From Candidatus Chisholmbacteria bacterium (GTDB lineage: Bacteria; Patescibacteriota; Microgenomatia; UBA1400; Chisholmbacteraceae): a DNA stretch of 64,000 bases. Of the stretch, positions 3,601 through 59,776 are shown one piece after another (positions within the stretch are counted from its first letter, which is position 1; every line of letters begins with the position of its first letter). The stretch is from assembly GCA_963704905.1 (NCBI GenBank), contig CAVPHZ010000001.1, forward strand, positions 1,089 to 65,088, read 5' to 3'. The notes beneath the pieces are model-generated. The model had not been told where the DNA came from, did no database searches, and was given only the letters and a program-made list of their open reading frames with translations. The position numbers and the translations under genes are program-made.

Positions 3601-3609
3601 GGTAGGCTA

Positions 3610-4314
3610 ATGAAAACTAAAGATAAACAGCCAATCATCAACTTCAAAAATATTCGAAAAACGTATGTCACTGGACCAGTGACTTATGAAGCGTTGCGTG
3701 GAATTACTTTCAAGATCTTTGAAGGAGAGTTTGTTGCGATCATGGGACCGTCTGGTAGCGGAAAGTCGACGATTATGAACATCATTGGAGCTCTGGATGT
3801 TCCGACTTCCGGCCAGTATTTGTTAAAAGAAAAAGATATTTCTTCGTATGACGAGGATGATCTGTCTGAAATTCGCAATCAGGAAGTTGGTTTCGTATTT
3901 CAAACGTTTAATCTTTTACCCAGAACTACAGTGCTCAAGAATGTTGAGCGGCCCATGATGTATGCAGGTATTCCTGCTGATGATCGGAATAAAAGAGCCA
4001 TGGATACATTAAAGAATGTTGGCCTTGAAGATAAAGCTGATAATTTGTCCAATCATCTTTCAGGAGGACAGATTCAACGTGTGGCTATTGCTCGGGCTTT
4101 GGTTATGAATCCATCTATACTTCTGGCTGATGAGCCAACAGGTAATTTGGATAGCACAACAGCAAATGAAATTATGGAGTTTTTTGAAAAACTTAACAAC
4201 GCCGGGAGCACTATTGTGGTGATTACTCATGAAAAAGAGATTGCCGAATTTGCCAAGCGAATTATTTACGTCAAAGATGGAGTTATTGATACGGATAGGA
4301 AAAACAATAAATAA
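3610..4314 (+). CDS. ABC transporter ATP-binding protein (MacB/LolD type)
   Basis: Walker A GPSGSGKST, ABC signature LSGGQIQRVAIARAL, Walker B LLADEPTGNLD. Confidence 0.9.
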   Translation: MKTKDKQPIINFKNIRKTYVTGPVTYEALRGITFKIFEGEFVAIMGPSGSGKSTIMNIIGALDVPTSGQYLLKEKDISSYDEDDLSEIRNQEVGFVFQTFNLLPRTTVLKNVERPMMYAGIPADDRNKRAMDTLKNVGLEDKADNLSNHLSGGQIQRVAIARALVMNPSILLADEPTGNLDSTTANEIMEFFEKLNNAGSTIVVITHEKEIAEFAKRIIYVKDGVIDTDRKNNK

Positions 4315-27242: not shown

Positions 27243-27491
27243 ATGAGATTGATGAAATGCGAGATCAAGGAGCCGACTGAACTTGTGAATTTTGGAGCTA
27301 CAGGCGACCCTACAAGAAGAATACTCCTGCCGGCTCGGGCACATGATTGTTTACTTGCTAAAAATATTCCCATTGGTGAAAGTCTTGACATGTCTCATGT
27401 TGAACCTGGAAAATATAATGTTGCTGGTTTTCCGTTAAAATTTATCAGTATAGATGGTTCTCCAGCTAGGGTAGTTTTAATTAGTGAGTAA
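27243..27491 (+). CDS. hypothetical protein
   Basis: 82-aa ORF with no recognised motif. Confidence 0.25.
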   Translation: MRLMKCEIKEPTELVNFGATGDPTRRILLPARAHDCLLAKNIPIGESLDMSHVEPGKYNVAGFPLKFISIDGSPARVVLISE

Positions 27492-27499
27492 AATTCAAT

Positions 27500-28340
27500 A
27501 TGTATATTGCAGTAGATGTTGGAGGCACGAGTACACGGATAGCTACATCTCGTGCTGGAAAAACTATTCATGATAAAGAGCGCTTTTCTACATCTCAGTC
27601 TTTCGAGATTGAAGTGAAGAGATTGTTCAAACAGTTAGAGAGCTTATTGGTCAGAATAAGTTAGATGGCGCTAGCGATTGGTGTTCCTGGAAGAATTGAT
27701 CATGATCGAATGTAGAGACTCTTTCGGTTCTCTAATTTACCTTCATGGAGTAATAAAGAAGTCTGTAAAATATTTCATAATGAACTCATGGCAAATATTC
27801 TACTCGCAAATGATGCTGAATTGGCAGCTTTAGGAGAAGCGACCATTGGTGCAGGAAAAAATCATCGAATTGTCGCATTTATCTACAGTAAGTACCGGGA
27901 TTGGAGGTTCACTTGTAATAGATAGGAAGCTTAGTCCCTGCTTGGACCAATACAGAACCAGGCACTATGTTTGTCTTCTTTGAAGAAGGGTCGGGTAATC
28001 AGATAACGAGCTGATTGGGAAGGACTATGGATCAGGACTAGCATTTGAAGAAACGCTATGGTAGTTTCTCCTGAAAAAAGTGCAATGATCCGATATATGT
28101 GGTAGAGCATGCTGCAAATTCTCGGACGGGGTGTAATTTCTGTTATACACGTGTGGTCTCCTGAAATTCTCGTTATTGGTGGAGGACTTTCACTAAAAGG
28201 AGAACTTCTTTTTGAACCGTTGAAAATTACGTTATGACCAATCTAACTTTGTTACCATCCACCCCAGCAGTAGTTCACGGAAAACTTGGTGATGATGCAG
28301 GGCTTTATGGTGGGTTTGCTCTTCTGAAGGAAAAAGAATA
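27500..28340 (+). pseudogene. ROK-family sugar kinase (glucokinase-like) broken by multiple frameshifts and stops
   Basis: MYIAVDVGGTSTRIA (ROK N-terminus), ALAIGVPGRIDHD, NDAELAALGEATIGAG and C-terminal GKLGDDAGLYGG are all present but in three different frames interrupted by stop codons. No ORF of 60 aa or more is in the track here. Confidence 0.6.
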
Positions 28341-38441: not shown

Positions 38442-38508
38442 AATCGCGAACTCGGATTCGAACCTTCGTATTTCCATAATTGAAAAAGTATAAATTAAAG
38501 CATAATAT

Positions 38509-38787
38509 ATGAACATGGGTTCATATAATTGCTGTGTTCCAGAAACCAAAGAGTTTACACAAGTAAGTTCTCTATCAACACTGTTAAAGTTGGTAGGTGA
38601 GGAAAGTAGGTTGAAGCTTCTGTGCCTGCTTCATCAAGGAGAGCATTGTGTGTGTGAAATGCTAGAGCACTTTGACATGTCGCAAAGTTTGGTGTCGCAT
38701 CATTTGTCGGATTTAAAGGAAGCTGGATTAGTGAGCATCCGAAAAGATGGAAGACAAGTACATTACTCACTTACTGCCAAGAGGTGA
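38509..38787 (+). CDS. ArsR/SmtB-family metalloregulator
   Basis: LLCLLHQGEHCVCEMLEHFDMSQSLVSHHLSDLKEAGLV is a winged HTH with Cys pairs at the ArsR metal-site position. Confidence 0.85.
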   Translation: MNMGSYNCCVPETKEFTQVSSLSTLLKLVGEESRLKLLCLLHQGEHCVCEMLEHFDMSQSLVSHHLSDLKEAGLVSIRKDGRQVHYSLTAKR

Positions 38788-38814
38788 TAAAGTTACTAAT
38801 TCGATATTTTCTAT

Positions 38815-39111
38815 GTGAGAGGAAAAGATATGAAAATCCAGGTTTTAGGTTCAGGTTGTACTACCTGTAAAAAGTTGTATGAAACTACCAAAGAAGCAGT
38901 TAAGGACATGGAAGGTGAATATGAAGTTGAATATGTCACTGGAACAGATGGCACTCAGAAAATAATCGAGCTAGGTGCTATGAATAGTCCGGTACTGGCA
39001 GTAAATGACCAAATTGCTATGACTGGTTTTACTCCCGACTTAAGAAGATTCAAGACAAAATTAAGAAACTTACCTAATGGATATTTTCGCCCCAATTCAA
39101 GCCTTGTCTGA
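38815..39111 (+). CDS. thioredoxin-like protein (redox-active disulfide protein 2 family)
   Basis: MKIQVLGSGCTTCKKLYE with a CxxC at the N-terminus of a short Trx fold, commonly paired with ArsR and arsenic permeases. The C-terminal 20 aa overlap the next ORF, so the end is uncertain. Confidence 0.6.
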   Translation: MRGKDMKIQVLGSGCTTCKKLYETTKEAVKDMEGEYEVEYVTGTDGTQKIIELGAMNSPVLAVNDQIAMTGFTPDLRRFKTKLRNLPNGYFRPNSSLV

Positions 39112-39643
39112 TGAGGTCACCTACCAGTGGCTGAGTATTACTCAAGGCTCGTATTTAGGGAAAGCGGTCAACTTTTTTATCTATGATGTGATCAAGATTG
39201 GTCTACTTTTGATTGCCATCAATTACCTGATGGCGATGGTTAGATACTATTTACCTGTAGCTAAAATAAACCAAGTATTAACCGGTAAAAACTGGTATGG
39301 GCTGGACTATTTAGTGGCAGCACTACTGGGCGTGGTTACCCCTTTTTGTTCTTGCTCATCGATCCCACTGTTTATCGGTTTTTTATCTGCTGGTATCCCA
39401 ATTGGCGTGACCTTTACATTCCTCATTAGCTCCCCTTTGGTTAATGAAGCTTCACTCTTTCTATTTCCGGCTATGTTTGGTCTCAAAATCACCCTGCTTT
39501 ACAACCTGATCGGTATGCTGGTGGCAATCATCGGTGGCTGGTTGATAGGTAAGTTATCCATGGAGCGGTTTATCCAACCCGAGTTTAAAAGCATTACATC
39601 AACTGCAAAAATACAAGAAGATGAAGGTGATAAAACGCCATGA
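39077..39643 (+). CDS. ArsP-like permease (DUF318 / PF03773), N-terminal half
   Basis: TPFCSCSSIPLF motif of organoarsenical permeases. Ends in a hydrophilic linker, and the stop overlaps the next start (ATGA). Confidence 0.6.
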   Translation: MDIFAPIQALSDEVTYQWLSITQGSYLGKAVNFFIYDVIKIGLLLIAINYLMAMVRYYLPVAKINQVLTGKNWYGLDYLVAALLGVVTPFCSCSSIPLFIGFLSAGIPIGVTFTFLISSPLVNEASLFLFPAMFGLKITLLYNLIGMLVAIIGGWLIGKLSMERFIQPEFKSITSTAKIQEDEGDKTP

Positions 39644-40056
39644 GAAAATTGGCAGTATCTTGGTGGCATGATGGCATGACTATCACCAAGCAAATATTTC
39701 CATATGTGGTACTAGGTGTGGCAATCGGTGCTATAATTCACGGCTTTGTACCTGATAGCTTTGTGAGTCAGTACCTCAGCACTGACGCCTGGTGGGTCAT
39801 TCCCGTTGCAGTTATTGCCGGAGTACCTCTTTACGCCAATTCAGTCAGTGTCATCCCAATTGTAGAAGCATCCGTAGGCAAAGGCGTCATGATTGGTACG
39901 GCTTTAGCTTTTATGACTGCCATTGTGACTCTATCAATCCCGGAGGCATTGATGCTAAAAAAAGCCATGAAGTGGCAGCTACTGGCTGCGTTTTTTGGGA
40001 TTACTATTATTGGCATTATGATTATCGGCTATGTATTTAATGCCATATCAACTTAA
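39640..40056 (+). CDS. ArsP-like permease, C-terminal half (separate ORF)
   Basis: 4-TM continuation. The combined length of 326 aa equals a single typical family member. Confidence 0.6.
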   Translation: MRKLAVSWWHDGMTITKQIFPYVVLGVAIGAIIHGFVPDSFVSQYLSTDAWWVIPVAVIAGVPLYANSVSVIPIVEASVGKGVMIGTALAFMTAIVTLSIPEALMLKKAMKWQLLAAFFGITIIGIMIIGYVFNAIST

Positions 40057-40097
40057 GCCTTGGGCAGAGCTGGAAGGGTTAGAGTTGTTGCTTGTTG

Positions 40098-40134
40098 AGT
40101 AAAATAGGTTCGAATAGCGTCCGAGGTCGCCAGC
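40098..40134 (+). repeat. T-loop-like repeat R1 (TAAAATAGGTTCGAATAGCGTCCGAGGTCGCCAGC)
   Basis: 35-nt core identical to R2 at 41479-41513. It is related to R3 and R4, not to the tRNA-Gln 3' end. Contains GGTTCGAAT, and an inverted segment AGGTTC...GAACCT spans 40106-40164. Confidence 0.8.
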
Positions 40135-40193
40135 CCCCTCAAGTAGCCTGAATCACGGTCAGAACCTCTCTTAGGAATTGGTATACTTTTTGG

Positions 40194-41348
40194 ATGAGCC
40201 TTCATAAAAATGTAAGATTGCTGACTTGGTTTAATTTTTTCTTGGATTTCAGATTGTATGCTCCGATCATGGCAATATACTTTTCTAGGGTTACTGGGTC
40301 GTATGCTCTGGGAATGAGTGTGTTTTCTATTACCATGCTGTCAGCTGCTATTTTTGAGATACCCACAGGAGTGTATTCAGACATAATTGGAAGAAAGAAA
40401 ACTATAGTTTTGGGTGCAGTAACAACACTCGTTTCAGTAGTAATGTATGCTATTGGGACTATTTATTGGGTGCTGTTGTTTGGGGCAGTGTTTGAGGGAT
40501 TAGCCAGATCATTTTATAGTGGCAACAATGATTCGATGCTGCATGATAGCCTGGCTGAACAAGGTCAGGAGAAAGAATATGCCCAATACTATGGAAAAAC
40601 AAGTTCGGCATATCAAATAGCATTGGCGATAGTGGCGGTATTAGGGTCAGTAATTGCGTATTTTTCATTTGGGCTGGTGATGTGGTTGTCGGTGATACCG
40701 GCGTTGATTGGATTGATATTCAGCATGGAGATGGTAGAGCCGAAGGTGGTGAGTGAAAAGAGTGCTAATGTATATGTTCATTTAAAGGAAGCGGTGAATA
40801 ATTTTAGAAAAAATGATCGGCTAAGAAAAATAAGTATTGCTTCTATCGTGGGTTATGTAAAAGGTGAGTCTGCACATTTATTCTTACCAGTATATTTTGA
40901 ACTCCTAATTCCAATATGGGCAATAGGCGTGGTGAGATTTTTTACTCACGCTGGAGCTGCGATTAGCTTTTATTCAAGCGGGAAATTGATAAAAAAATAT
41001 GGGGAATTGAAAATGCTTTTGTCAGGTACAGGCTATAGTTTTGTGAGTAACATTTTTGCCTTGCTACTAGCCTCTGTTATCTCGCCATTTGTTATAGCTA
41101 CAAATAGCTTGTTTTTTGGGGTAGTTACATCTTCTAAGAGTTCGTTGCTGCAAAAAGAGTACAGTCAATCACAGAGATCAACTATGGGATCGCTAAACTC
41201 TTTGGCTGGAGGAATTGTGTTTGCAATGGTGGTATTTTTGCTGGGGCTAGTGGCAGATATGCTGACGCCAACAAGAGCGCTGATACTACTGCAATTTTTA
41301 GGATTGATACCACTAGTTATTTGGTGGAGGTTGTATCGGAATGACTAG
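40194..41348 (+). CDS. MFS-type transporter (12 TM)
   Basis: 384 aa hydrophobic protein. GVYSDIIGRKKTIVLG fits the MFS loop 2-3 motif. Flanked by R1 and R2. Confidence 0.55.
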   Translation: MSLHKNVRLLTWFNFFLDFRLYAPIMAIYFSRVTGSYALGMSVFSITMLSAAIFEIPTGVYSDIIGRKKTIVLGAVTTLVSVVMYAIGTIYWVLLFGAVFEGLARSFYSGNNDSMLHDSLAEQGQEKEYAQYYGKTSSAYQIALAIVAVLGSVIAYFSFGLVMWLSVIPALIGLIFSMEMVEPKVVSEKSANVYVHLKEAVNNFRKNDRLRKISIASIVGYVKGESAHLFLPVYFELLIPIWAIGVVRFFTHAGAAISFYSSGKLIKKYGELKMLLSGTGYSFVSNIFALLLASVISPFVIATNSLFFGVVTSSKSSLLQKEYSQSQRSTMGSLNSLAGGIVFAMVVFLLGLVADMLTPTRALILLQFLGLIPLVIWWRLYRND

Positions 41349-48996: not shown

Positions 48997-49806
48997 TTAG
49001 TTCAAGAGCTGATCAATAGCACTTTGAAAAACAGTAAATGGCTGGGCTCCGATGACTAATTGTCCATCGATATTTCCATCACCTGAGGATTTCCCTATTA
49101 CGAAGCTGGGTGTTCCTGAAGCTCCGGCAGCCTGTGCGTCTGCTTTGTCTTTTTTCACTTCTTCACCCTGTGCATTATCTTGAAGACAAGATGTGAAGCT
49201 ACTGGTATTCAAGCCAACATCGCTAGCTATTGATTGAATATCATCATCATTTAAACCATTTCCGTTAGAAATGGTTCTGTTAAATATCTCGTCGTGGTAT
49301 TCGAAGTATTTACTATCTCCACCCTGTTCTCGTGCACAATTGGCAGCAATTGCTTCCTTGGTTGCCATTGGATCATGAAAAGGAAGCGGAAGATCACGAT
49401 AGACTATTTTCACTTTCCCTGTATCAACATATTCTTTCTTTATCTGAGGTAGTGTTTCATCATAATGGCGCTTGCAGAATGGACATTCGTAGTCAGAAAA
49501 TTCAATGATTGTCACTGGAGCATTTGCATCACCAATTACCGGATCATCATCAACTGAAACAATAGAATTCGATGGTGGAGGTTGGCCTGGATCTGTTCCT
49601 TGGTTCGGTTGTGTTCCTCCTTGTGGCACTCCATCTTGTTGTGATCCAGTTAGTTGCGTTTTACTACCTTTTAGGAGTTCTAGTTGGCCCTGAAATCTTC
49701 CGATCAAAAATGCAGCAACTATCAATAGCAGAATCAAGAGAGGGGTAGCTGTTTTTTTCGATGGAACTGGGACTGAAATTGTTTTTTTCTCCATAACTCT
49801 TCGCAC
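48997..49806 (-). CDS. DsbA-family thiol:disulfide oxidoreductase, membrane-anchored
   Basis: N-terminal TM, Pro/Gln-rich linker, then IIEFSDYECPFCKRHY (CPFC active site). Confidence 0.8.
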   Translation of the reverse strand: MRRVMEKKTISVPVPSKKTATPLLILLLIVAAFLIGRFQGQLELLKGSKTQLTGSQQDGVPQGGTQPNQGTDPGQPPPSNSIVSVDDDPVIGDANAPVTIIEFSDYECPFCKRHYDETLPQIKKEYVDTGKVKIVYRDLPLPFHDPMATKEAIAANCAREQGGDSKYFEYHDEIFNRTISNGNGLNDDDIQSIASDVGLNTSSFTSCLQDNAQGEEVKKDKADAQAAGASGTPSFVIGKSSGDGNIDGQLVIGAQPFTVFQSAIDQLLN

Positions 49807-49857
49807 CTTTCTACTACTCAGTGTAGTAGTTACTCGTTTACCGTGTCAAGACCTAAA

Positions 49858-50811
49858 TTACTTAAAATGAGAAAATGATGTGGCTTCTGAGAAGAATTTT
49901 CTCGAGTGCTGCTGTTCACAAGCAGTTTGATTTTCGAGTACTGTTTGACTTTCCGCCTTGCTCTCGGTTGGCAATAAAAAAAGTGCAAGAAACAGAAGAG
50001 TTAAAAACAACAATGATTTTGATACGGTTTTCGGTACAGTAAAAAAAGATTCTCGCTTGCCGTACTCATTAAGTTGAAGTATTCGCAATTTCAACGATTG
50101 GTTTTGAAATGATGGTGTGTATGGAAGAGCTGGCATAGAAACAATCTTTGCAAGAGCTGATTTTAAAAATCGATTTGTACTTTGAGTTTGTAAGACATAT
50201 TTATCAGCCTGCAGTTCTATATGCGTATGATAGAGAGAGACAAGTTCTCGAACTATCGGTACAAAGAAGAATACGTCTTTAATAATTTGGCTGAAGAATA
50301 ATTTCAGTGAGTGTCTTTGCTTGATGTGTGCGAGCTCATGAAGAATCACTGCTTCTAGCTCTTGGTCGTTGATCGTTTTGAGCAGGTGTTCTGAAAGAAG
50401 TATCGTTTTCTTGAAAAATCCGAGACTTAGTGCCAAGGGATTATTATTACTAATTATTCTTATATTTATCTTCTCAAATTCCATTTTGTTCACAATGTTA
50501 GCTATACGCTTATATCCAGACTTCGATTTTGCTTCTTGAAAGGACTGGATTCTGCTTATCATCTTCACGAGTGACAAACTGGTGCTAATCACTACTACCA
50601 GAACCATGAAGGTTAGGAGACTCGCTATAAATATCCCAATTATATGCGTCGGGGAAGAAAGAAAAGCACCCAGCGATTGCTGACAGTATTCTATATAGTG
50701 AACCACTGTCGATTGTACATATTTATTCACTAACAGTAATCCAGCGAACCCAATGGAACCGGCTATGAGAAGTAGGGAATAAAATATTTGATCATCTTTC
50801 TTTAACTTCAT
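49858..50811 (-). CDS. BlaR1-like M56 peptidase with a minimal extracytoplasmic tail
   Basis: 4 TM helices, then HELAHIKQRH (HExxH) in the M56 position, a terminal TM helix and a ~35-aa tail. No penicillin-binding sensor domain. Confidence 0.75.
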   Translation of the reverse strand: MKLKKDDQIFYSLLLIAGSIGFAGLLLVNKYVQSTVVHYIEYCQQSLGAFLSSPTHIIGIFIASLLTFMVLVVVISTSLSLVKMISRIQSFQEAKSKSGYKRIANIVNKMEFEKINIRIISNNNPLALSLGFFKKTILLSEHLLKTINDQELEAVILHELAHIKQRHSLKLFFSQIIKDVFFFVPIVRELVSLYHTHIELQADKYVLQTQSTNRFLKSALAKIVSMPALPYTPSFQNQSLKLRILQLNEYGKRESFFTVPKTVSKSLLFLTLLFLALFLLPTESKAESQTVLENQTACEQQHSRKFFSEATSFSHFK

Positions 50812-51208
50812 TGAGCAATTTGAGAATATTCTCCCTTTCTTCCCGTGGTAATTTACTTATGCCACGAGCAAACGCAGCAGAAGCATCAGTACCATACACC
50901 TGCGATAATGACCTCACTGTGCTGGTAATAATTCGCTGGACAACTTGTGATTTACTCAGCTTTGGACTGTAGACAAACGCCTTTCCAACTTTTTTTCTGG
51001 ATACGATTTTTTTAGAATGCAACCTATCCAGAATCGTCATCACAGTTGTATAAGCGATCTTTTTCTTCGCTTTTAAACAACGATGAACGTCGTTTACCGT
51101 TGTCTCATCATGATTCCAAAGACAATCCATGATTTTTCTTTCCAGTGGTCCTAGGGTGGTGCTTTGGGTCATACTACAGATTGTAGTAAATAATTGAACC
51201 AATCGCAA
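50792..51208 (-). CDS. BlaI/MecI/CopY-family winged-helix repressor
   Basis: LGPLERKIMDCLWNHDETTVNDVHRCLKAKKKIAYTTVMTILDRLHSKKIVSRKK is the Penicillinase_R fold. No C-terminal Cys cluster. The true start is probably the internal Met (MTQSTTL...). Confidence 0.8.
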   Translation of the reverse strand: MRLVQLFTTICSMTQSTTLGPLERKIMDCLWNHDETTVNDVHRCLKAKKKIAYTTVMTILDRLHSKKIVSRKKVGKAFVYSPKLSKSQVVQRIITSTVRSLSQVYGTDASAAFARGISKLPREERENILKLLNEVKER

Positions 51209-52069
51209 TTATTTTTGATTCTTGAGTGCTGATTTTAGGAGCCTGTAAAAGAGATAACTTCCAACGACCACAAAGAGAATATTTATTCCAGGAATATTTT
51301 TAGTAACATTTGTGACAGATATGGCTGTATTTTGAATGGTCTGAATAACTGCAGACTCGTCAGACGGCATCCCAAGCATTCCGACCGAAGAAAGAATTAT
51401 CGTCAAGGTTCCCGTCACGGTGAATATTGCAGCGGCAATGAGGTTTGAGACGAAAACAGGATACTCTTTTTTTCCTAAGCGAATTATTCCAAGTTTCCGT
51501 TTCAGTAGTGGTTTTTCTAAAATGTTTCGTTTTTCAATGAACAGCGAGGCAATATAGAGTGGAGCAACCATGCCAAATACATAACTTAATCCGACTCCAA
51601 GCGCTTGGAATGTTGATGAACTCAGAGTGCTTAGAGCTATGACACCAATAAGAACCGGAGCACAACAGGCAGAAGTGATGCCAGAGAAAACACCTAATGT
51701 AAATGTGGAAAAGATGTCATTTTTTTGTTTTCCACTACTCAATGCAAAATTCGGCATTGGTAGTTTTATCCCCAGAAGTGAAAAAATTGCTACAAGCAGC
51801 ATAAAAAACCCTCCTACAATGTAGGTTTGGTCATGGAGCTGGAAAAAGAGTGTTGATAGCGCTTTGGCTCCTAAGACGACAGGTAGCATGACTACAAATA
51901 TTCCCAACGAATATACAATTGTCATTAAGAGAATTCTTTTTTTCTCTTTGAAAATATTTGCAAAGTACGCTGGAAGAAGGTATGAAATACAGCAAGGCGC
52001 AAACAGCGCAACCATCCCAGCTGCAAAGGCAGCAATAAGAGAAACCTGGTAGAGCGCTGATTGTCCCAT
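51209..52069 (-). CDS. CcdA/DsbD_2-like cytochrome c biogenesis-type membrane protein
   Basis: LFAPCCISYLLP in TM1 and GITSACCAPVLIG later are paired-Cys motifs, in a multi-TM protein. Confidence 0.65.
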   Translation of the reverse strand: MGQSALYQVSLIAAFAAGMVALFAPCCISYLLPAYFANIFKEKKRILLMTIVYSLGIFVVMLPVVLGAKALSTLFFQLHDQTYIVGGFFMLLVAIFSLLGIKLPMPNFALSSGKQKNDIFSTFTLGVFSGITSACCAPVLIGVIALSTLSSSTFQALGVGLSYVFGMVAPLYIASLFIEKRNILEKPLLKRKLGIIRLGKKEYPVFVSNLIAAAIFTVTGTLTIILSSVGMLGMPSDESAVIQTIQNTAISVTNVTKNIPGINILFVVVGSYLFYRLLKSALKNQK

Positions 52070-52072
52070 AAT

Positions 52073-54244
52073 TTAGATTTCCACTTTGAGATTTGCTTTG
52101 CGCAGAGTCATTGCGTTGATGACAACAATAACTGAGGAGAGACTCATCAGGAGAGCTCCAAATGCTGGTGTGAGTTTAAAACCAAGCGGAATAAAGAGAC
52201 CAGCTGCAGCAGGTATAGCAACGATGTTGTACCCTAGTGCCCACCAAAGATTTTGAACCATTTTGTTATACACTTTTCTTGAAAGAACGATTAAGCGGAC
52301 AATATGCTGAGGATTACTCTGTGTGAGTACAATATCACCAGCTTCGACGGCTACATCTGTTCCTGTACCAATTGCTATACCTACATCGGCTTGTGTTAAT
52401 GCCGGAGCGTCATTGACCCCATCACCCGCCATAATAACAACATTTCCTTCATCCTGTAGCTTCTTAAGATATTTGTATTTATCCTCCGGTAAAACTTCGG
52501 CAAATACTTTGTCTATCCCTAACTCTCTTGCGACCGGTTCCGCAGCTGCCTTCGTATCGCCTGTCAACATTGCAACTTTCACTCCCAGTTTGTGAAGTTC
52601 TTCTACTGCTTTTTTTGACTCTTCTTTAATCTGGTCACTAAGGGAAAAAATACCAATGATTTCCTTATTACTTGCAACAAACACAGGAGTTTTTCCTTGG
52701 TTGGAAATATCAGTAAGGACTGACTCTGCTTTTTCATTCCATACATTCTTCTCTTCCATAAGACGCTTGTTACCAAGAAAGTATGACTCCCCTCCTATAT
52801 TCGCTTGCATACCTCTTCCTGAAAGATTTTTTACATTCTTTGCTTCTGGTATCTTTACTTTCTGTTTATTTACATACTCCACAATCGCCATTCCAATGAC
52901 ATGAGAAGAATGTTGTTCAATTGCCCCTGCTACGGTGAGAAGGTTCTCTGTATTCCGTTGAAGTACTTCTACACCTGTAACACCAAAGTTTCCTTCAGTT
53001 AACGTTCCAGTCTTATCAAAAACCACATAGTCCGCTTTTTTAACTATTTCAATTTTTCCCATATCTTTCATGAAGACACCGTTTTTTACGGCTAAACGAG
53101 TAGCTATAGTTGAAACTGTAGGTATTGCTAACCCTAAGGCATGTGGACAGGCAATAACGAGCACTGTGATAGCGAGCGTTATTGCAAAGACAAACGATTG
53201 ACCGACAATCAAAGACCATACTAAGAGCGTGATCATTGAAACCGTGAGTGCTGAGAGTGTTAACCACTTCGAAGCACGGTCAGCCAATTTTTGAGCAGAC
53301 GGTTTGGTTTTCTGAGCTTTTGAAATAAGATCTTGAATTTGGCCGATCGTCGATGACTCTCCAACGCGTAATAGCTTTACCTCAACTGAACCGTCGATGC
53401 TAATAGCTCCAGCAACAACCTCTGCGCCTTTTCCTTTTTCAACTGGTTTGGATTCTCCGCTGAGGTGGGCTTCATTGAAATTAGCACTCCCCTTGATAAT
53501 CTCTCCATCGGCTGGAACTTTTTCTCCAGGTTTGACAAGTACAATGTCTCCTTCTTTAAGTCTATCTAGGGGAACATCTTTAACTTTGCCATTTTTTTTG
53601 AGATGTGCTTCTTTTGGTAGAAGTTTTGCTACTTCCTGAAGCGCATCACCAGCTGCCGTTGATGATTTTGCCTCGAGAAAGTGACCAAAGAGTAGAACCC
53701 AAATTAGCGTTGCTATTTCCAGATAAAACTCGACCTGTAATGCAGGAACAAATGTTGAAGCGACTGAAAATAGATAACCAGCGCCGACACCTAATGAGAC
53801 TAAAGTCATCATTCCAAATTGCTTGGCTTTAATTTCATGCTTTGCATGCTCAAAGAACACAAGTGAAAAGTAAAAGATGATGGTTGCGATGATGAACTCT
53901 AAGTATGGTCTAAGAAAGAAGTCGGGAATTCCGAGAAATTGAACTGCTGGTTTGCTGAATAATGCAAGAGGAACAAGTAGAACTGTTACAATAAAAAATC
54001 TTCCCAGAAATTCACTCGCTGCTCCTTCACCTACCATCATTGACTGATGTTCATGCCCTTCGTGATTTCCATGTTGATGATCCTCGTGATGTTTATGTTC
54101 ACCTTCACCATTTTTTTCCACCAAGTCCATGCCGCATTTTGAGCAAGACCCTGGTTTATTGCTCCTGACCTTAGAATGCATAGGACAATAGTATGATCCT
54201 TCTCCTTCGTCATGATGATCTTGGTGACCTTCACAACAAGACAT
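52073..54244 (-). CDS. copB: P1B-type heavy-metal ATPase of the CopB class (CPH motif) with a His-rich N-terminus
   Basis: DKTGTLT, GDGVNDAPAL, TGDT and the transmembrane CPH (IACPHALGL). N-terminus HQDHHDEGEGSYYCPMHS...CSKCGM...HKHHEDHQHGNHEGHEHQ. Start set at the ATG preceded by the RBS AGGAGAA (MSCCEG...). The track start at 54340 would overlap the upstream gene. Confidence 0.9.
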   Translation of the reverse strand: MSCCEGHQDHHDEGEGSYYCPMHSKVRSNKPGSCSKCGMDLVEKNGEGEHKHHEDHQHGNHEGHEHQSMMVGEGAASEFLGRFFIVTVLLVPLALFSKPAVQFLGIPDFFLRPYLEFIIATIIFYFSLVFFEHAKHEIKAKQFGMMTLVSLGVGAGYLFSVASTFVPALQVEFYLEIATLIWVLLFGHFLEAKSSTAAGDALQEVAKLLPKEAHLKKNGKVKDVPLDRLKEGDIVLVKPGEKVPADGEIIKGSANFNEAHLSGESKPVEKGKGAEVVAGAISIDGSVEVKLLRVGESSTIGQIQDLISKAQKTKPSAQKLADRASKWLTLSALTVSMITLLVWSLIVGQSFVFAITLAITVLVIACPHALGLAIPTVSTIATRLAVKNGVFMKDMGKIEIVKKADYVVFDKTGTLTEGNFGVTGVEVLQRNTENLLTVAGAIEQHSSHVIGMAIVEYVNKQKVKIPEAKNVKNLSGRGMQANIGGESYFLGNKRLMEEKNVWNEKAESVLTDISNQGKTPVFVASNKEIIGIFSLSDQIKEESKKAVEELHKLGVKVAMLTGDTKAAAEPVARELGIDKVFAEVLPEDKYKYLKKLQDEGNVVIMAGDGVNDAPALTQADVGIAIGTGTDVAVEAGDIVLTQSNPQHIVRLIVLSRKVYNKMVQNLWWALGYNIVAIPAAAGLFIPLGFKLTPAFGALLMSLSSVIVVINAMTLRKANLKVEI

Positions 54245-54261
54245 ATGTTCTCCTAACCTTG

Positions 54262-54861
54262 TTAATTTCTCTTTTTTCCTGCAATACCTTTCAAAAAGTA
54301 GATGCTTCCTGTCGTTAGAAACATGACTAGTAAGATCCAAGTAATTATTCCTCCAAGACCATACATACCATGATTAAATTTAGTTGCTTTTGTATTACCA
54401 CCAATCATCCAGGGTCGCTTCCCTGAACTATTTCCGTTGGACATATGCGAGGCAAACATTCCTCGATATGTTCCTTCACTATCATTCCCACAGCCAAGAA
54501 ATCTTGATCCCATTACAATATGAGCATTATCAAGTGATTCGGACCCCTCTCCACCCATCATACGGTCCATTCTTTCATGAAGTTCTGGATCTGGATGCAT
54601 AACTCCCATCCAGGCATCTCCGAGACGTTCAAACTCATCATTCGTCACTTCGTCACAATTTAGTTCACTTATTATGCTTACACCATGAGCTGATAAAACA
54701 TTTTCTAAAACCTCATCAATTTCTTCACTATGAGTATCTAGTTCAGCTTGAGATTCATTTTCGGAATCAAACCCCATCATGCCCATCTGTGCATTGACTG
54801 AACCGGTATAAGTGATAACGAGCGCTAATGCAAACAAGGTTGATATGATTGTTCTCTTCAT
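54262..54861 (-). CDS. secreted Met/His-rich protein with a C-terminal TM anchor (putative periplasmic Cu-binding)
   Basis: Signal peptide, then MGMMGFD, MGVMHPDPELHERMDRMMGG, MFASHM and MYGLGG segments, and a terminal TM helix. Confidence 0.45.
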   Translation of the reverse strand: MKRTIISTLFALALVITYTGSVNAQMGMMGFDSENESQAELDTHSEEIDEVLENVLSAHGVSIISELNCDEVTNDEFERLGDAWMGVMHPDPELHERMDRMMGGEGSESLDNAHIVMGSRFLGCGNDSEGTYRGMFASHMSNGNSSGKRPWMIGGNTKATKFNHGMYGLGGIITWILLVMFLTTGSIYFLKGIAGKKRN

Positions 54862-54878
54862 GTGTTCTCCTTTTTTTT

Positions 54879-55103
54879 CTAGCTTTTTATAACATTGGCG
54901 GTAATGGTTACTTCTAGACTAGGATAATTGATATTATCTGTTTCAATGTAAATGGTGCGGGTAAGTTTTCCGAGATCAGTATCATCTTTGTGAACTGCTG
55001 GATCAAAACTCACTTTTACTTTTGTGGACTCATATGGCGCGAGGGAATTCTTTTCAACTTCAGCGCTTGTACATCCGCAAGATGTTGAGACTCTAGTGAC
55101 CAT
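54879..55103 (-). CDS. DUF1573-family small protein (C-G-C motif)
   Basis: VSTSCGCTSAEVEKN...VSFDPAVH...IYIETDNINYPSLEVTITANVI parallels the 57411-57905 paralog. Confidence 0.5.
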   Translation of the reverse strand: MVTRVSTSCGCTSAEVEKNSLAPYESTKVKVSFDPAVHKDDTDLGKLTRTIYIETDNINYPSLEVTITANVIKS

Positions 55104-55149
55104 TATTGGCTGAAGGGAGTAAAATTAGTGAGTGTAAATTCTGTGTTTT

Positions 55150-55611
55150 CTACATCTCCGTAAATGACTGTTCCCAGCTCTTGATTTTCGGTGTCAAGCT
55201 AACCTCAACGTTCACTTCCCTGTAGGCATTAATTCCACCGACAAGATCGCTAACATTTGTATATCCCAGTTCCACAAGTTCTTTGCTGGCTGAGTCACTC
55301 ATTGAACCTGAGCGGCAGTAGACGAAAAGTGGCGTATTTTTGTCTTGGGGAAGTTGTGAAAGGTTCTGTGAGATTTGATTATAGGGAATGAACGCATCAG
55401 TTCCTGAAATGTGCTGTTGTTCTGGAATATGTACGTCAAGGATAAATGTATCTTTGTTGTTGATAATGTCCTGTGCTTCGAGTGCACTTACTTTTTTAAC
55501 TCCTGACTCACTTACCATGGTTTGTCCCTCTTCTCCTTTTGATTCATTTGGTATCTGCGAGTTACGTGTAGATAAATATCCACAATCCAACAAGTACAAG
55601 TATCGCAACAA
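55150..55611 (-). CDS. rhodanese-domain sulfurtransferase
   Basis: FVYCRSGSMSDSASKELVELGYTNV has the active-site Cys loop of the rhodanese fold. Confidence 0.75.
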   Translation of the reverse strand: MLRYLYLLDCGYLSTRNSQIPNESKGEEGQTMVSESGVKKVSALEAQDIINNKDTFILDVHIPEQQHISGTDAFIPYNQISQNLSQLPQDKNTPLFVYCRSGSMSDSASKELVELGYTNVSDLVGGINAYREVNVEVSLTPKIKSWEQSFTEM

Positions 55612-55744
55612 TAACTATTCTAATGTTTTTCATCGTTATCTCCCTTTTATATTAGTTTGCTCCAACGTGATCGTCACTCGGGACTCAAATTCTATAGGGT
55701 CATTTGAAAATAGCGATACTGTTCTGGTTACAGGTCCGAACTAG

Positions 55745-56265
55745 ATCAGGGTGTACTGTTGGATCATAGAAAACTCTAAGGATTGCAGTGTCTCCCGGGC
55801 GGATAGCTCACTTTCCAGTTTTTAGGATTTTCCTGTCCGTGCCCCTCCATTGTAAATGTTGGTCCGACTTCCCCGTCATAGACGAGCCGCTACGGATGTG
55901 CAGCCGCACGATGAGCTCAGTTTATGAATTTCTAAATCACTTTCTCCAAGATTTTTAAATTCAAAGTCGGTTGATACAGTTCCTTTTGCTTGACTTACTT
56001 TTCCTAGATCCTGCTTAACTTCACGAATCTCAATCTTCGGTGCGTCAGCTGGGGCAAGCTCTGCCAATTTTTGTTTTAACGCATCTTGGTCCTCCATGTT
56101 TGTTAATCTATCGATACCAAATTGTTTCGCCGTTGCCAGTATCACTTCATCTTTTGAAGATCCGCCTAATATTTGCTGGTCGATGTAATCAATCATTTGA
56201 ACCATCGCTCCGCAACATGGCTTTTCTTTATTTAAAGGTTGTCCGCAACAGGGACAAGTGAACAT
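55745..56265 (-). pseudogene. DUF1573-like paralog with an N-terminal Cys-rich segment; C-terminal half disrupted
   Basis: ORF 55876-56265 ends abruptly right after SSSCGCTSVAARL. In shifted frames the sequence continues with ...GHGQENPKNWKVSYPPG and ...ETLQSLEFSMIQQYTLI, resembling the paralog C-terminus (LEFSLSANVIN) but about 30 aa shorter. Confidence 0.4.
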
Positions 56266-56437
56266 CGGATATACTTCACTTGCCTCAACTGGTTTAATGA
56301 TTGTTTGCTTTGTGGTATGAGTAGTGTTTTTGAAATGGACTAAGTGCTGTGTTCAGTGGAGTCGACAGCAGAGCGACTAGTATCACTAGTGTTGAAAGCT
56401 GCCAGAACAGTCTTTCCCTGTTGATATTCTTCATGAT

Positions 56438-57403
56438 TTAGGCTCCACATCCTCCTCCACCTTGTGCTGGCTGTGGAAGGCTTTTAATTTTTTGTCTAGT
56501 TGTCTGATACCCTTGAGCACTCGAATACTGCGCACTCAGTGCAAGTTTCGGGTCCACTTGGTTCCACTCCTGACCTTGTTCCTTAAAATAGGTCGCAAGC
56601 TCAATGTAAGTTTGCGGAAACCAGAGTGAATTCACTTTAAGTGCAACATCGTACATTTCCTGTTCACTCACTCCATTGGCAGCCATTAGCTCCAAAAGAC
56701 CTAACATTGCCATTCCGTGGTTACAGTCAGGAAAATGGGTTGAGTTCCCACAACATGGTCTGTAAATATTTTGAGATACAGTGTCGACTAATGCTTGCTG
56801 TTGGCCGGTCAGAGTAACGTACGGATGAGTAGAGTAGTGCTCCATTGCTGGTGTTTTACTCAGTGACCAACCACCGGTTGCGGCAAACTTGCTGGCATCA
56901 CCGCCGAATTGTGCATCCGTCATTTCACCGTTTTCTAAAATGTCATTTTTGTTAGCTAACCCAAATGCCCAGAGCATATCCAGAAGAAAACGGCTGTTTT
57001 GTTGGTTCAAGACAACTGTATCGTTGAACTCTCCCGTAAGCATCTGTTCGTCGTTTTCTTGGAGTCCACCTTGAAACAATGTCTTGAGCTTTTGTTCGTC
57101 AATCACCCCATCATCTACCATGCGTTTTCCTAAATCACCCCAGGTAATGGGGAGCTCTACCCCCTCAGCTGGGATAACGATTTTTTGTTGTTCTGATACT
57201 TCCACTTGACTAGTTGGTTGGTTAGCGTTGCTTTGCGTGGAAGCTTTCTGAAAAGCTGGATTTCTTACCTTGAATTTAGGTTCAATCTTCACGGTAAATA
57301 GCTGAAGGAAAACAAGTAACCCAAAGAGAATAAGCGCCGAAGATTTCCAAAATTTTTCTGGATCCTTCATGAGATTAGGTTTTTTAATAATCTGTTTGGG
57401 CAT
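56438..57403 (-). CDS. secreted/membrane-anchored hypothetical protein with a Cys/His motif
   Basis: N-terminal TM helix, 321 aa, RPCCGNSTHFPDCNHGM motif and a C-terminal GGGGCGA. Confidence 0.45.
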   Translation of the reverse strand: MPKQIIKKPNLMKDPEKFWKSSALILFGLLVFLQLFTVKIEPKFKVRNPAFQKASTQSNANQPTSQVEVSEQQKIVIPAEGVELPITWGDLGKRMVDDGVIDEQKLKTLFQGGLQENDEQMLTGEFNDTVVLNQQNSRFLLDMLWAFGLANKNDILENGEMTDAQFGGDASKFAATGGWSLSKTPAMEHYSTHPYVTLTGQQQALVDTVSQNIYRPCCGNSTHFPDCNHGMAMLGLLELMAANGVSEQEMYDVALKVNSLWFPQTYIELATYFKEQGQEWNQVDPKLALSAQYSSAQGYQTTRQKIKSLPQPAQGGGGCGA

Positions 57404-57410
57404 ATGCCTC

Positions 57411-57905
57411 CTAGTTGATTACATTGGCTGATAATGAGAATTCTAGATTGGAATTATTTTGGTCATTGGTTTCTACTGACACAATTCTAGTTATCTGTCC
57501 TGTTCCTGATGGACCATGAAAAGCAGGGTCGAAGGTTACGACAAGTTCGGCTTCCTGACCAGGTTCAAGTTCACCGAGCCAAGATGAATTTGAATGCATT
57601 CCGAAGTATGGACTTTGTTGTCCATTGATGATGACCTTCGCTTCAGTGCACATACATGACGTTTTAATATTGGCTAACTGAAGTGGGCTGGATCCTGAAT
57701 TTTTTATCATGAAGCTCTTATGTACGACCCCGCCAGTTAAGGTAATTGTTCCCCAATCGTGGGTTGATTCTTGTATTTCTGCCTGAGCTTGTGCAGTCGT
57801 TTCAATTCGTGGTGGACTTGGCGCTCTTGAAGCAAGGACTACGCCACCTATAAGTAATAGTACTGTAGCTCCTACCACCAGAGAAACAATTTTTGAATTA
57901 CTCAA
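57411..57905 (-). CDS. DUF1573-family protein, membrane-anchored (C-x-C variant SCMCT)
   Basis: N-terminal TM, then IKTSCMCTEAKV..VVTFDPAFHGPSGTGQITRIVSVETNDQ..LEFSLSANVIN. Confidence 0.5.
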   Translation of the reverse strand: MSNSKIVSLVVGATVLLLIGGVVLASRAPSPPRIETTAQAQAEIQESTHDWGTITLTGGVVHKSFMIKNSGSSPLQLANIKTSCMCTEAKVIINGQQSPYFGMHSNSSWLGELEPGQEAELVVTFDPAFHGPSGTGQITRIVSVETNDQNNSNLEFSLSANVIN

Positions 57906-58402
57906 TTTTTTCTCCTCTTATTTATGTACTTCTTTCTATCTTTTATAAACTTTTCTTTACATCCAGAAGCACAGAAATAATACGCTTCCTTGTTTAGATT
58001 TACCGCTACTGCGGCGGTTTTTGGACTCAGTCTCATGCCACAAACAGGGTCGATCACAACTGGAACCAGATCTTTCATTCTCCATTTAAGTTCCTCTGAA
58101 AGAATGACATCATCTTTTTGTTGATCGAGAAGCATTTCGCGAAATAAATCTGAGGCTTTGACAATGTTTGGATGAGAAAGTTTGTAGTAGATCGCCGTGC
58201 CGTTCCTCCGAGTTTCTACTACACCATGTTCTCGAAGAACTGACAGATGTTGAGACAGATTCGCCTGGGGAAGTCCAAGCATATCTTGCATTTCTGAAAC
58301 TGAGAGCTCTTGATCGCGAAGAAGGTGGATTATTTCAACACGTTTTTGACTGGCAAGGGCTTTATAGAGCATCTCGTGAAGTTTAAATACTTTGTTATAC
58401 AT
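57902..58402 (-). CDS. ArsR-family HTH regulator fused to a C-terminal TRASH/YHS metal-binding domain
   Basis: ArsR HTH (LASQKRVEIIHLLRDQELSVSEMQDMLGLPQANLSQHLSVLREHGVV), then DPVCGMRL...YYFCASGCKEKF, the TRASH/YHS Cys pattern. Confidence 0.75.
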   Translation of the reverse strand: MYNKVFKLHEMLYKALASQKRVEIIHLLRDQELSVSEMQDMLGLPQANLSQHLSVLREHGVVETRRNGTAIYYKLSHPNIVKASDLFREMLLDQQKDDVILSEELKWRMKDLVPVVIDPVCGMRLSPKTAAVAVNLNKEAYYFCASGCKEKFIKDRKKYINKRRKN

Positions 58403-58503
58403 GTTTATATTCGCATATACGAATATTTAAGAGTATATTTATTCAAGATTAATCTGTCAAGCAGTAATTGGAGTAAATATTTGTAGAATAAACCGGTCTA
58501 GGC

Positions 58504-59560: not shown

Positions 59561-59776
59561 ATGGATAACGATCATAACTCAACCTCACATTCAATGACTT
59601 GTCCAGTTGAAGGATGCGGTCGTCGAATTGAAGTTCATGCGCACAATGATGATGATGCTGTCATGAAAATAATGCAAGCTGGGAAGGCTCACTTTGGTGA
59701 AATGCACCCAGGTGCTACTGGTATGTCACCTGAAGAAATGGAAAGTATGACGCGAAAATTAATGAAAAAGCACTAA
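59561..59776 (+). CDS. DUF1059-like small metal-binding protein
   Basis: 71 aa. MTCPVEGCGRRIEVHAHNDDDAVMKIMQAGKAHFGEMHP fits the C..GC...H...H pattern of DUF1059. Confidence 0.4.
   Translation: MDNDHNSTSHSMTCPVEGCGRRIEVHAHNDDDAVMKIMQAGKAHFGEMHPGATGMSPEEMESMTRKLMKKH

Follow-up and report, generated by a model that had tools for sequence, protein, structure and literature searches.

The ultra-small bacteria of the Candidate Phyla Radiation (CPR), or Patescibacteria, account for a large share of bacterial diversity, yet the ways in which their single-membrane surface withstands metals and oxidants are poorly understood. In a 64,000-nucleotide stretch of the genome of a Candidatus Chisholmbacteria bacterium (GenBank assembly GCA_963704905.1, contig CAVPHZ010000001.1, positions 1,089 to 65,088; hereafter, the window), a P1B-type ATPase is encoded in a run of genes together with several membrane-anchored proteins that carry cysteine motifs, which raises the question of what a metal pump and these proteins do together. 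The best reading of the sequence, in our view, is that the locus is a copper-responsive operon that would combine a copper pump with anchored Cys-motif proteins at the cell surface. We further propose, with moderate confidence, that the operon is copper-inducible and protects the cell envelope, copper export being coupled to an extracytoplasmic thiol system that would resemble the Scs system and employ proteins without the thioredoxin fold.

The original prediction described a cluster of twelve genes with gaps of 0–50 bp. All 12 open reading frames (ORFs) are indeed present at 48997–58402, all on the minus strand, and most of the domain assignments (ArsR+YHS, DUF1573, rhodanese, P1B ATPase, BlaI, M56, and DsbA) were upheld by Pfam and NCBIfam searches. 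The number of genes, however, is 11 because the rhodanese and the small DUF1573 ORFs belong to one frameshifted gene, and two of the genes (hereafter, genes A and B) are disrupted. Similarly, two of the gaps between the ORFs are 172 and 264 bp long; both consist of frameshifted coding sequence, and once genes A and B are reconstructed, all intergenic gaps are 51 bp or shorter. Three proteins, namely, a 321-aa protein (hereafter, P321), a 199-aa Met/His-rich protein and a 286-aa membrane protein, have no match in Pfam. The location on the outer face of the membrane that had been envisaged for the Cys-motif proteins is consistent with the transmembrane (TM) predictions, in which every one of them has an N-terminal anchor. 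The claim that the cluster lies outside described systems also agrees with the literature searches, in which no publication on this operon arrangement was found.

Conservation of the Operon among CPR Bacteria

A genome scan with an alignment of DUF1573 sequences yielded 80 related loci (denoted L001, L087 and so forth), the ORFs of which were searched with a panel of the cluster proteins; the survey covers CPR orthologs of the 164-aa DUF1573 protein of the window. The tightest partner of DUF1573 in these loci is not the ATPase but the 286-aa CcdA-like membrane protein, which is encoded in 78 of the 80, always on the same strand and within 6 kb. P321 is present in 67 loci and a P1B ATPase in 61, in 58 of these within 6 kb. 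The regulator is either of the CsoR family (38 loci) or of the ArsR family (26 loci, with 18 ArsR+YHS fusions), and the remaining components are less frequent: rhodanese in 25 loci, DsbA in 22, the Met/His-rich protein in 12, M56 in four and BlaI in three. The recurrent gene order is [CsoR or ArsR-YHS] > DUF1573 > P321 > (rhodanese-DUF1573) > CcdA-like > ATPase. The order in the window, with the ATPase ahead of the CcdA-like gene, is shared with another Chisholmbacteria locus (L007) and, as far as the contig reaches, with L006.

These data bear on the question, posed with the original prediction, of whether DUF1573 homologs are enriched near metal-handling genes: for this subfamily, a P1B ATPase is found within 6 kb in 58 of the 80 loci and a rhodanese in 25. 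If a genome of about 1 Mb encodes one or two pumps of this kind, a pump would, by our estimate, fall within a random 16-kb stretch in only a few percent of cases; the linkage between DUF1573 and the pump is far above chance. The operon is found across Chisholm-, Roizman-, Levy-, Davies-, Collier-, Beckwith-, Ames-, Woese- and Pacebacteria as well as WWE3. Judging by the record titles, nearly all 80 loci belong to metagenome-assembled genomes (MAGs) of the CPR/Microgenomates type; about one quarter are titled, for example, “uncultured Gammaproteobacteria” and are probably mislabeled. In particular, many TPA_asm MAGs (L009, L012, L013, L022, L025 and others) with the titles “uncultured Gammaproteobacteria” or “Pseudomonadales” hold the CPR-type operon at 44–56% identity, and these titles look like placeholder or wrong taxonomy.

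Regulator, Pump and Surface Proteins

The first gene (57902–58402) encodes an ArsR/SmtB-family repressor in which a helix-turn-helix (HTH) domain (HTH_5, PF01022, 50.6 bits against a cutoff of 22; NF033788, 84.9 bits against 55) is fused to a C-terminal YHS/TRASH-type Cys motif (PF04945, 37.1 bits against 30.3; C-X22-C-X3-C); the TRASH motif noticed previously falls within this YHS domain. The protein has neither the canonical CxC of helix α3, where it reads ELSVSEM, nor the His-rich site of helix α5, and given the missing α3 CxC, metal is likely to be sensed via the fused YHS/TRASH motif. Upstream of the gene lies a promoter-like TTGACA-17-TATACT element (58432–58460, minus strand), the best site in the region with 11 of 12 matches; promoter-like sites in the region are in total not more numerous than in shuffled sequences, and the position of this one is the sole argument for it. 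Between its −10 element and the start codon, there is a perfect palindrome, ATATTCG-N6-CGAATAT (58407–58426), the only exact match in the window, where 0.2 matches with up to two mismatches would be expected by chance. In about 20 of the 26 ArsR-type loci, the ArsR(-YHS) gene has a motif of the form TATTCR-N6-YGAATA at its 5′ end; six copies of this motif are exact, all of them in loci of this type. The palindrome is a candidate operator of ArsR-YHS.

The ATPase (52073–54244) passes the copper-type model TIGR01511 (569.3 bits, cutoff 397) and TIGR01525 (590.2 bits, cutoff 346) and scores 384 bits with the Cd-type model TIGR01512; among the solved structures, the nearest are CopA of Archaeoglobus fulgidus (440 bits) and of Legionella (400 bits), compared with 282 bits for ZntA. 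Its motifs include N-terminal MSCC, an HMBD ribbon, DKTGT, CPH (VIACPHALG), GYN(X)4P (LGYNIVAIP) and the His-rich segment HKHHEDHQHGNHEGHEH. The original assignment to the CopB class is accurate with respect to a copper P1B pump with CPH and a His-rich N-terminus; the last TM helix (TM8), however, reads MSLSS instead of the MSXST of P1B-3. The P1B-3 subclass is defined by CPH, GYN(X)4P, MSXST and a His-rich N-terminus, and MSLSS is listed for P1B-1-like groups (PMC5552934, Table 2). The ATPase is classified here as a CPH/MSLSS hybrid that is assigned to the copper class, with the choice between P1B-1 and P1B-3 left unassigned. Its most likely start codon is the ATG at 54244 (MSCCEGH...) and not the TTG at 54340 to which the ORF extends; with this start, it no longer overlaps the Met/His-rich gene.

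The related loci point to the same metal. The signature of Cu(I) sensors in the CsoR/RcnR family is x-C-H-C, and the CsoR-like regulators carry C-H-C in 32 of 39 cases, C-H-H in four and C-Y-C in three. A multicopper oxidase, cupredoxins and HMA domains occur in related clusters, one of which holds the multicopper oxidase together with YHS, DUF302 and DsbA, and neither merA nor merB was seen in the cluster of the window or in the Pfam-annotated related loci. The initial suggestion of copper or another thiophilic metal as the theme of the cluster is thus borne out by TIGR01511, by the proximity to CopA and by the C-H-C signature of the CsoR-like proteins.

The 286-aa protein (51209–52069), which the original prediction had called CcdA-like, contains FAPCC in TM1 and SACCAP in TM4, i.e., its active-site cysteines are doubled. 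Seven TM segments are predicted, and the positive-inside pattern places the C-terminus in the cytoplasm. A profile of 10 orthologs matches Thermus CcdA (5vkv) with E = 6.2e-10, with both redox Cys aligned (aPCc to sPCv and acCaP to tpCigP), such that the redox positions of 5vkv correspond to the first Cys of FAPCC and the second Cys of SACCAP; one of the 10 orthologs also matches DsbD_TM, at 7e-5. The label is accordingly retained, and the protein is assigned to a divergent subfamily of CcdA/DsbD. By homology, it would transfer electrons from cytoplasmic thioredoxin to a partner on the outer face, and the doubled Cys could alter this chemistry. In three different CPR lineages, a CcdA-like protein is read in frame into an HMBD-ATPase (L046, 10201–13227; L075, 10252–13182; L080, 4062–5870); the reading frames are 977–1009 residues long in L046 and L075 and cut by the contig end in L080. 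Such a fusion, which involves the cytoplasmic N-terminus of the ATPase, is consistent with the cytoplasmic location of the C-terminus of the CcdA-like protein.

The 164-aa DUF1573 protein (57411–57905; PF07610, 50.8 bits; SCMCT) has a single predicted N-terminal TM segment. The AlphaFold2 model of this protein (pLDDT 93) is a beta-sandwich with an Ig/PapD-like fold, for which the best match among the PDB-based structures used in all fold searches is 2qsv; CusF, CopC, PCuAC and HMA proteins are not among the top PDB matches. Invariant in the alignment are C84-M-C86, M103 and, within the motif D126-P-x-x-H130-G-P, the residues D126, P127 and H130, whereas H104 is near-invariant. According to the secondary structure of the model, C-M-C lies in a four-residue hairpin between strands 75–82 and 87–93. 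The literature lists DUF1573 in a selenoprotein form, with UGC as its motif (PMC9312934, PMC13188914), so that the first Cys of the CxC is a functional residue; in NCBIfam, the domain is connected with the OS_HP2 (seleno)protein family. Separately, a short N-terminal M-x-(D/S)-CC or HC motif was observed in eight of 33 aligned DUF1573 sequences (MSQDCCS, MKHDCCN, ...NMNCCA), and the same CC-type tail is found at the start of the ATPase (MSCCEGH, 54236–54244; MTCCPGH in L087) and in a 62-aa protein of L001 (16413–16601, MSDCCGDH...GGCC). This recurrent tail, presumably cytoplasmic, may be a shared Cu(I)-binding element.

P321 (56438–57403), the secreted Cys/His-motif protein of the original prediction, is membrane-anchored; its CPR family is very large and highly conserved, with over 6900 matches at 60–75% identity and 666 clusters at 50% identity. 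The invariant elements are RPCCGNxxHFPDCNHG and a C-terminal GGGGCG tail. The protein contains a CcmH-like three-helix-bundle domain, in which the Cys motif is located in the loop that follows helix 1. Inclusion of P321 in the CcmH family was considered and rejected: neither P321 nor the Cys-rich domain of gene A retrieved CcmH in HMMER/Pfam or PDB sequence searches, and RPCCGNSTHFPDCNHG stands in the place of the CcmH motif LRCxxC, leaving a resemblance in fold. One relative (P0309; L088, 1749–2912) has an N-terminal HMA domain (MTCPSC) ahead of the anchor, and its gene adjoins those for DUF1573 and an HMA-ATPase. Other relatives (P0334, P0343 and P0315) have an N-terminal multi-TM domain of about 200 aa with a membrane CPxC motif and without a Pfam match. 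In Pacebacteria, P321 adjoins a classical DsbD_TM and Redoxin pair as well as a copper island, which comprises a P1B ATPase, a two-component system, cupredoxins and an HMA protein.

Two further anchored proteins are encoded by the disrupted genes. Three-frame translation and tblastn with intact orthologs show that 54879–56434 comprises two genes, each spread over several frames. Gene A (55636–56434) encodes, in order, the anchor MKNINRERLFWQLSTLVILVALL, the Cys-rich domain CPCCGQPLNKEKPCCG (CPCCG..PCC) and a full DUF1573 (SCGCT), with four frame changes, and gene B (54879–55633) encodes the anchor MKNIRIVIVAILVLVGLWIFIYT, a rhodanese (ORF 55150–55611; PF00581, 44 bits against 22.2) with the CRSGSMS loop and a full DUF1573 (SCGCT), with three. 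Hence the disrupted DUF1573-like protein with an N-terminal Cys-rich segment that had been noted is both disrupted and Cys-rich, but the whole gene also holds an anchor and a complete DUF1573, and the rhodanese is not interleaved with the DUF1573 paralogs but rather fused to one of them. DUF1573 is confirmed three times in Pfam (50.8, 39.4 and 42.0 bits against a cutoff of 26.1; motifs SCMCT, SCGCT and SCGCT), although the individual ORFs are incomplete, with 55876–56265 aligning to profile positions 1–47 and 54879–55103 to positions 35–98 only. The orthologs of genes A and B are intact in L001 (260 and 249 aa) and L087 (268 and 262 aa); in L086, the gene A ortholog is intact (260 aa) and that of gene B is cut by the contig end. 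The rhodanese loop C-R-x-G-x-M-S is invariant in 28 orthologs. The family of rhodanese-DUF1573 fusions has 549 matches, the top 120 of which all share this architecture at about 220–265 aa, with the catalytic Cys, CGC and DPAVH invariant. The Cys-rich domain of gene A shows a weak profile similarity to the P321 motif (hhalign E 0.0025, probability 12%).

Insertion of the rhodanese into a DUF1573 gene, suggested by halves that overlap at SCGCT, was rejected because each half, when followed into another frame, makes up a complete domain that is colinear with the intact orthologs, and because the rhodanese has no flanking DNA repeat. Homopolymer sequencing error was also discarded as the cause: alignment of gene A with L087 DNA reveals single-base insertions at about 55886, 55809 and 55738, none of them in a homopolymer. 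A ROK-family sugar kinase elsewhere in the window (27488–28338, plus strand) is likewise spread over at least three frames (DVGGTSTR..., ANDAELAALGE..., ...VIGGGLS...), with only the middle piece reaching Pfam ROK (E 3.9e-4), so that frameshifted genes are not limited to the copper cluster. Apparently, genes A and B and the ROK kinase are subject to gene decay, with local assembly error as the alternative, and genes A and B, with seven disruptions between them, are apparent pseudogenes that are probably non-functional in this genome. The core of the operon (regulator, DUF1573, P321, ATPase and CcdA-like protein) is intact.

Proposed Mechanism and Alternative Explanations

We propose that the ArsR repressor, bound to the palindrome in the promoter, senses metal via its YHS/TRASH motif and would let go of the DNA when Cu(I) rises. 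The P1B ATPase, for which we infer transport from the family assignment, would export cytoplasmic Cu(I). The CcdA-like protein, presumably co-transcribed with the pump, would, by homology, carry reducing equivalents to the outer face or, alternatively, form a thiolate site in the membrane. The clients would be proteins without a thioredoxin fold, namely, the Ig-like DUF1573 protein with its CxC and the CcmH-like P321 with PCC...C and a flexible C-terminal Cys, joined in relatives with intact genes by the rhodanese-DUF1573 and CPCC-DUF1573 fusions. The reduced surface thiols could repair copper-catalyzed mis-oxidation, bind or buffer the exported Cu(I), or both, and the BlaI-M56-DsbA genes are an occasional add-on module. 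With a CcdA-type partner in 78 of the 80 loci and a CcmH-like P321, a thiol-redox relay is at least as likely to be indicated as a set of simple metal chaperones.

Only tentatively, we suggest that DUF1573 and P321 could make up an unrecognized relay of a non-thioredoxin type, served by a tetra-Cys CcdA that is coupled and, in some lineages, fused to the pump. If so, Cu(I) and reducing power would meet at one spot on the surface, in a machine that would export copper and hold it as thiolate; such a machine would be characteristic of the sampled CPR lineages and would provide the first proposed function for DUF1573 and the P321 family.

Several points weigh against the coupling of copper export to a thiol system. 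Copper induction, electron flow and copper binding are all deduced from sequence, and the cluster lacks a thioredoxin-fold reductase that could link the CcdA-like protein to the proposed clients; DsbA is normally an oxidant. The CcdA-like protein of the window reaches neither of the Pfam DsbD models (DsbD_TM and DsbD_2). To our knowledge, doubled Cys are not a feature of characterized CcdA proteins, and here they could form a MerT-like membrane metal site instead of a redox pair. The likeness of P321 to CcmH is purely structural, not significant in Foldseek and accompanied by the replacement of LRCxxC with PCCG...C. The Met and His residues of the 164-aa DUF1573 protein (CMC, GMH, FHGP) fit direct metal binding at least equally well. 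Two of the proposed clients, genes A and B, are broken in this genome. Finally, the 80 loci are orthologs picked by the motifs of the query and show conservation of the operon, not a property of DUF1573 in general.

The main rival explanation, which we consider somewhat unlikely, is a pure metal relay, where DUF1573, P321 and the Met/His-rich protein would be extracytoplasmic Cu(I) chaperones or sponges loaded at the exit site of the ATPase, and the tetra-Cys CcdA-like protein would be a MerT-like Cu(I)-thiolate site or channel, with no need for redox relay. The conserved Met/His and the vicinal Cys fit this model equally well: C-M-C and D-P-x-x-H are invariant in the 164-aa protein, as is the Met of G-M-H, with its His near-invariant, and the CC pairs of the CcdA-like protein are vicinal in both TM1 and TM4. 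Also consistent with direct metal transfer are the fusions of the CcdA-like protein to the ATPase and of HMA to P321, and the M-x-CC tails on the ATPase and on eight of the 33 aligned DUF1573 sequences. As for the selenoprotein forms, many metal-binding Cys sites have Sec variants, too (PMC9312934, PMC13188914). However, it is precisely the two redox-active Cys that align in the homology to CcdA. The rhodanese and the CcmH-like fold represent modules for redox chemistry or sulfur transfer and are not known as metallochaperone folds, the top PDB matches of DUF1573 are free of CusF, CopC, PCuAC and HMA, and P321 of Pacebacteria adjoins a classical CcdA and Redoxin pair.

It is improbable, in our estimation, that the operon handles reactive sulfur (persulfide or sulfane sulfur) at the surface under a CstR- or BigR-like regulator, the copper ATPase being a neighbor with a separate job. 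This interpretation would account for the rhodanese with its invariant catalytic Cys fused to DUF1573, for the three of the 39 CsoR-like proteins that have C-Y-C without His, as in CstR, for a sub-threshold similarity of the ArsR domain to the sulfite sensor BigR (61.9 bits, cutoff 155), and for weak TsoB (rhodanese/DsbD) matches in NCBIfam; a literature search on the Tso (TsoR/TsoB) system returned nothing usable. The rhodanese, however, is present in only 25 of the 80 loci and has decayed here while the core is intact, and the Cu(I) fingerprint of most CsoR-like regulators, the metal motif of the ArsR-YHS protein and the CcdA::ATPase and HMA::P321 fusions tie the core to metal and its pump.

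That the same architecture serves another metal, Ag(I), Hg(II) or Cd/Zn/Pb, appears slightly more improbable still. All soft metals are ligands of thiolate-rich sites, the sensors of the ArsR family respond to diverse signals, and the MSLSS of TM8 is not the textbook MSXST of P1B-3. Nevertheless, the margin of TIGR01511 over the Cd-type model (569 against 384 bits), the scores of ZntA and CadA structures far below those of CopA, the C-H-C fingerprint, the multicopper oxidase and cupredoxins of related loci and the failure to see merA or merB in the cluster or the annotated relatives argue for copper. A relic or variant system of cytochrome c maturation or general disulfide formation beside a copper pump, which the CcdA homology, the CcmH-like fold and the presence of DsbA might suggest, is hardly plausible given the single regulator slot (CsoR or ArsR-YHS), a gene order that includes the ATPase and is constant in most of the 80 loci, the fusions to the ATPase and HMA, the missing LRCxxC and the lack of heme-handling genes among the Pfam-annotated neighbors.

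Accessory Genes and Comparison with Known Systems

The accessory genes vary among the loci. The Met/His-rich protein (54262–54861) has 15 Met and 7 His among its 199 residues and TM segments at 4–22 and 172–190, corresponding to a signal peptide and a C-terminal anchor; its homolog in L087, the closest relative (3087–3747), consists of two overlapping ORFs (76 and 146 aa), and there may be a frameshift there. Downstream of the CcdA-like gene are a BlaI/CopY-family winged-helix repressor (50792–51208; Penicillinase_R, 94 bits), an M56/M48-type membrane zinc protease (49858–50811; 317 aa, Peptidase_M56, 57.3 bits, HELAH, five TM segments and no further domain) and a membrane-anchored DsbA-like thioredoxin-fold protein with CPFC (48997–49806; Thioredoxin_4, 106.9 bits; DSBA, 76.3 bits), the gene of which has a promoter-like site of its own at 49849–49820. 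The combination of a Penicillinase_R repressor with a HEXXH protease is the expected BlaI + M56 pair; the protease lacks the C-terminal penicillin-binding sensor domain of BlaR1, and the repressor, whose C-terminus is devoid of Cys, lacks the CxCx4CxC of CopY. A CopY-type role for the BlaI homolog was rejected in view of this missing motif and of the presence of the module in only three or four of the 80 loci. BlaI, M56 and DsbA are adjacent in three related loci of other lineages, directly after the ATPase and in that order in L028 and L051 and on the opposite strand, upstream of the regulator, in L024. Judging from this distribution, the trio may be a mobile accessory module, with DsbA under the control of a BlaR1-like protease that lacks the penicillin sensor.

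A few additional genes are of note. In L001 (15225–16195) and 18–19 of the 80 loci, the ATPase gene is adjoined by a gene pair that is not found in the window and encodes a 169-aa membrane protein (VACCAHHAVD) and a 153-aa DUF5643-like secreted protein. The operon is preceded, at a distance of about 1.2 kb and beyond an SPFH gene, by a divergent gene (59561–59776, plus strand) for a 71-aa His/Cys/Met-rich protein (SHSMTCPVEGCG...HAHNDDD...HFGEMHPG) without a Pfam match. Finally, the window contains a separate metalloid-type set (38506–41348, plus strand), in which an ArsR with the canonical CVC is accompanied by a Thioredoxin_3 protein, an MFS transporter and an ArsP_1 permease. Two overlapping ORFs (39077–39643, profile positions 2–138, and 39640–40056, positions 175–293) share the permease between them, and both a natural two-gene form and another disruption are possible.

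The operon ties DUF1573, the P321 family and the tetra-Cys subfamily of CcdA, all with function unassigned, to a copper pump and copper sensors. If the proposed coupling is correct, it would offer the first testable function for DUF1573, a domain that is also common in Bacteroidota and Planctomycetota, and imply that folds other than thioredoxin can provide Scs-like protection from copper and oxidation. Given the small size of the soluble domains, their expression should be easy and the hypothesis directly testable.

With the cop operons (CsoR/CopY-CopZ-CopA/CopB in Gram-positive bacteria and CopR/CopT-CopA in archaea), this cluster shares the juxtaposition of a metal repressor with a CopA/CopB-type ATPase, the fusion of a TRASH/YHS motif to a DNA-binding domain, and the CPH and His-rich N-terminus of the pump. 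The archaeal HTH-TRASH regulators CopR/CopT, reportedly described by Ettema and colleagues in 2003, combine an Lrp/TrmB-type HTH with TRASH, whereas here an ArsR-type HTH is combined with YHS. Furthermore, no CopZ or HMA chaperone is encoded in this window, and five or six extra extracytoplasmic or membrane Cys proteins are encoded between the regulator and the pump.

The branch of cytochrome c maturation that leads from CcdA/DsbD via CcmG to CcmH is similar in comprising a CcdA homolog with both redox Cys and an anchored CcmH-like Cys protein, but differs in that here PCCGNxxHFPDC replaces LRCxxC, a CcmG-type thioredoxin and heme-handling genes are missing, and the regulators are copper sensors. 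For DUF1573, the closest parallel is the alpha domain of DsbD, the Cys pair of which is C103/C109. Both are Ig-like sandwiches with a pair of cysteines, in DUF1573 an invariant CxC that is almost always encoded together with a CcdA-like protein. In DsbD, the alpha domain is an Ig-like sandwich with a redox Cys pair that acts downstream of the DsbD/CcdA membrane core (PMC3322552). In contrast, DUF1573 is a separate anchored polypeptide, its motif is a CxC at a hairpin and not the pair of DsbD alpha, and neither a sequence match nor a top fold match links the two.

The closest functional counterpart appears to be the Scs system (ScsABCD) of Salmonella, Proteus and Caulobacter, where a DsbD-superfamily transporter keeps extracytoplasmic Cys proteins reduced, these proteins being isomerases or reductases that can bind Cu(I) tightly (PMC10907172, PMC3322552, PMC8900818, PMC5524982). 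The composition is distinct: ScsB has the alpha-beta-gamma organization, whereas here the transporter has just the CcdA core, with doubled Cys and an additional TM segment, and is sometimes fused to the ATPase, and in place of the thioredoxin-fold ScsC/ScsD, the proposed clients are Ig-like DUF1573 and CcmH-like P321. The present system also differs in belonging to a monoderm CPR host, in forming a single operon with a P1B pump and in being known from sequence data. The alpha and gamma domains of ScsB and thioredoxin-fold ScsC/ScsD proteins, by which membership in Scs is recognized, are lacking here, and the likeness is one of analogous function: both would be copper-linked thiol systems of the cell envelope that are co-regulated with copper defense.

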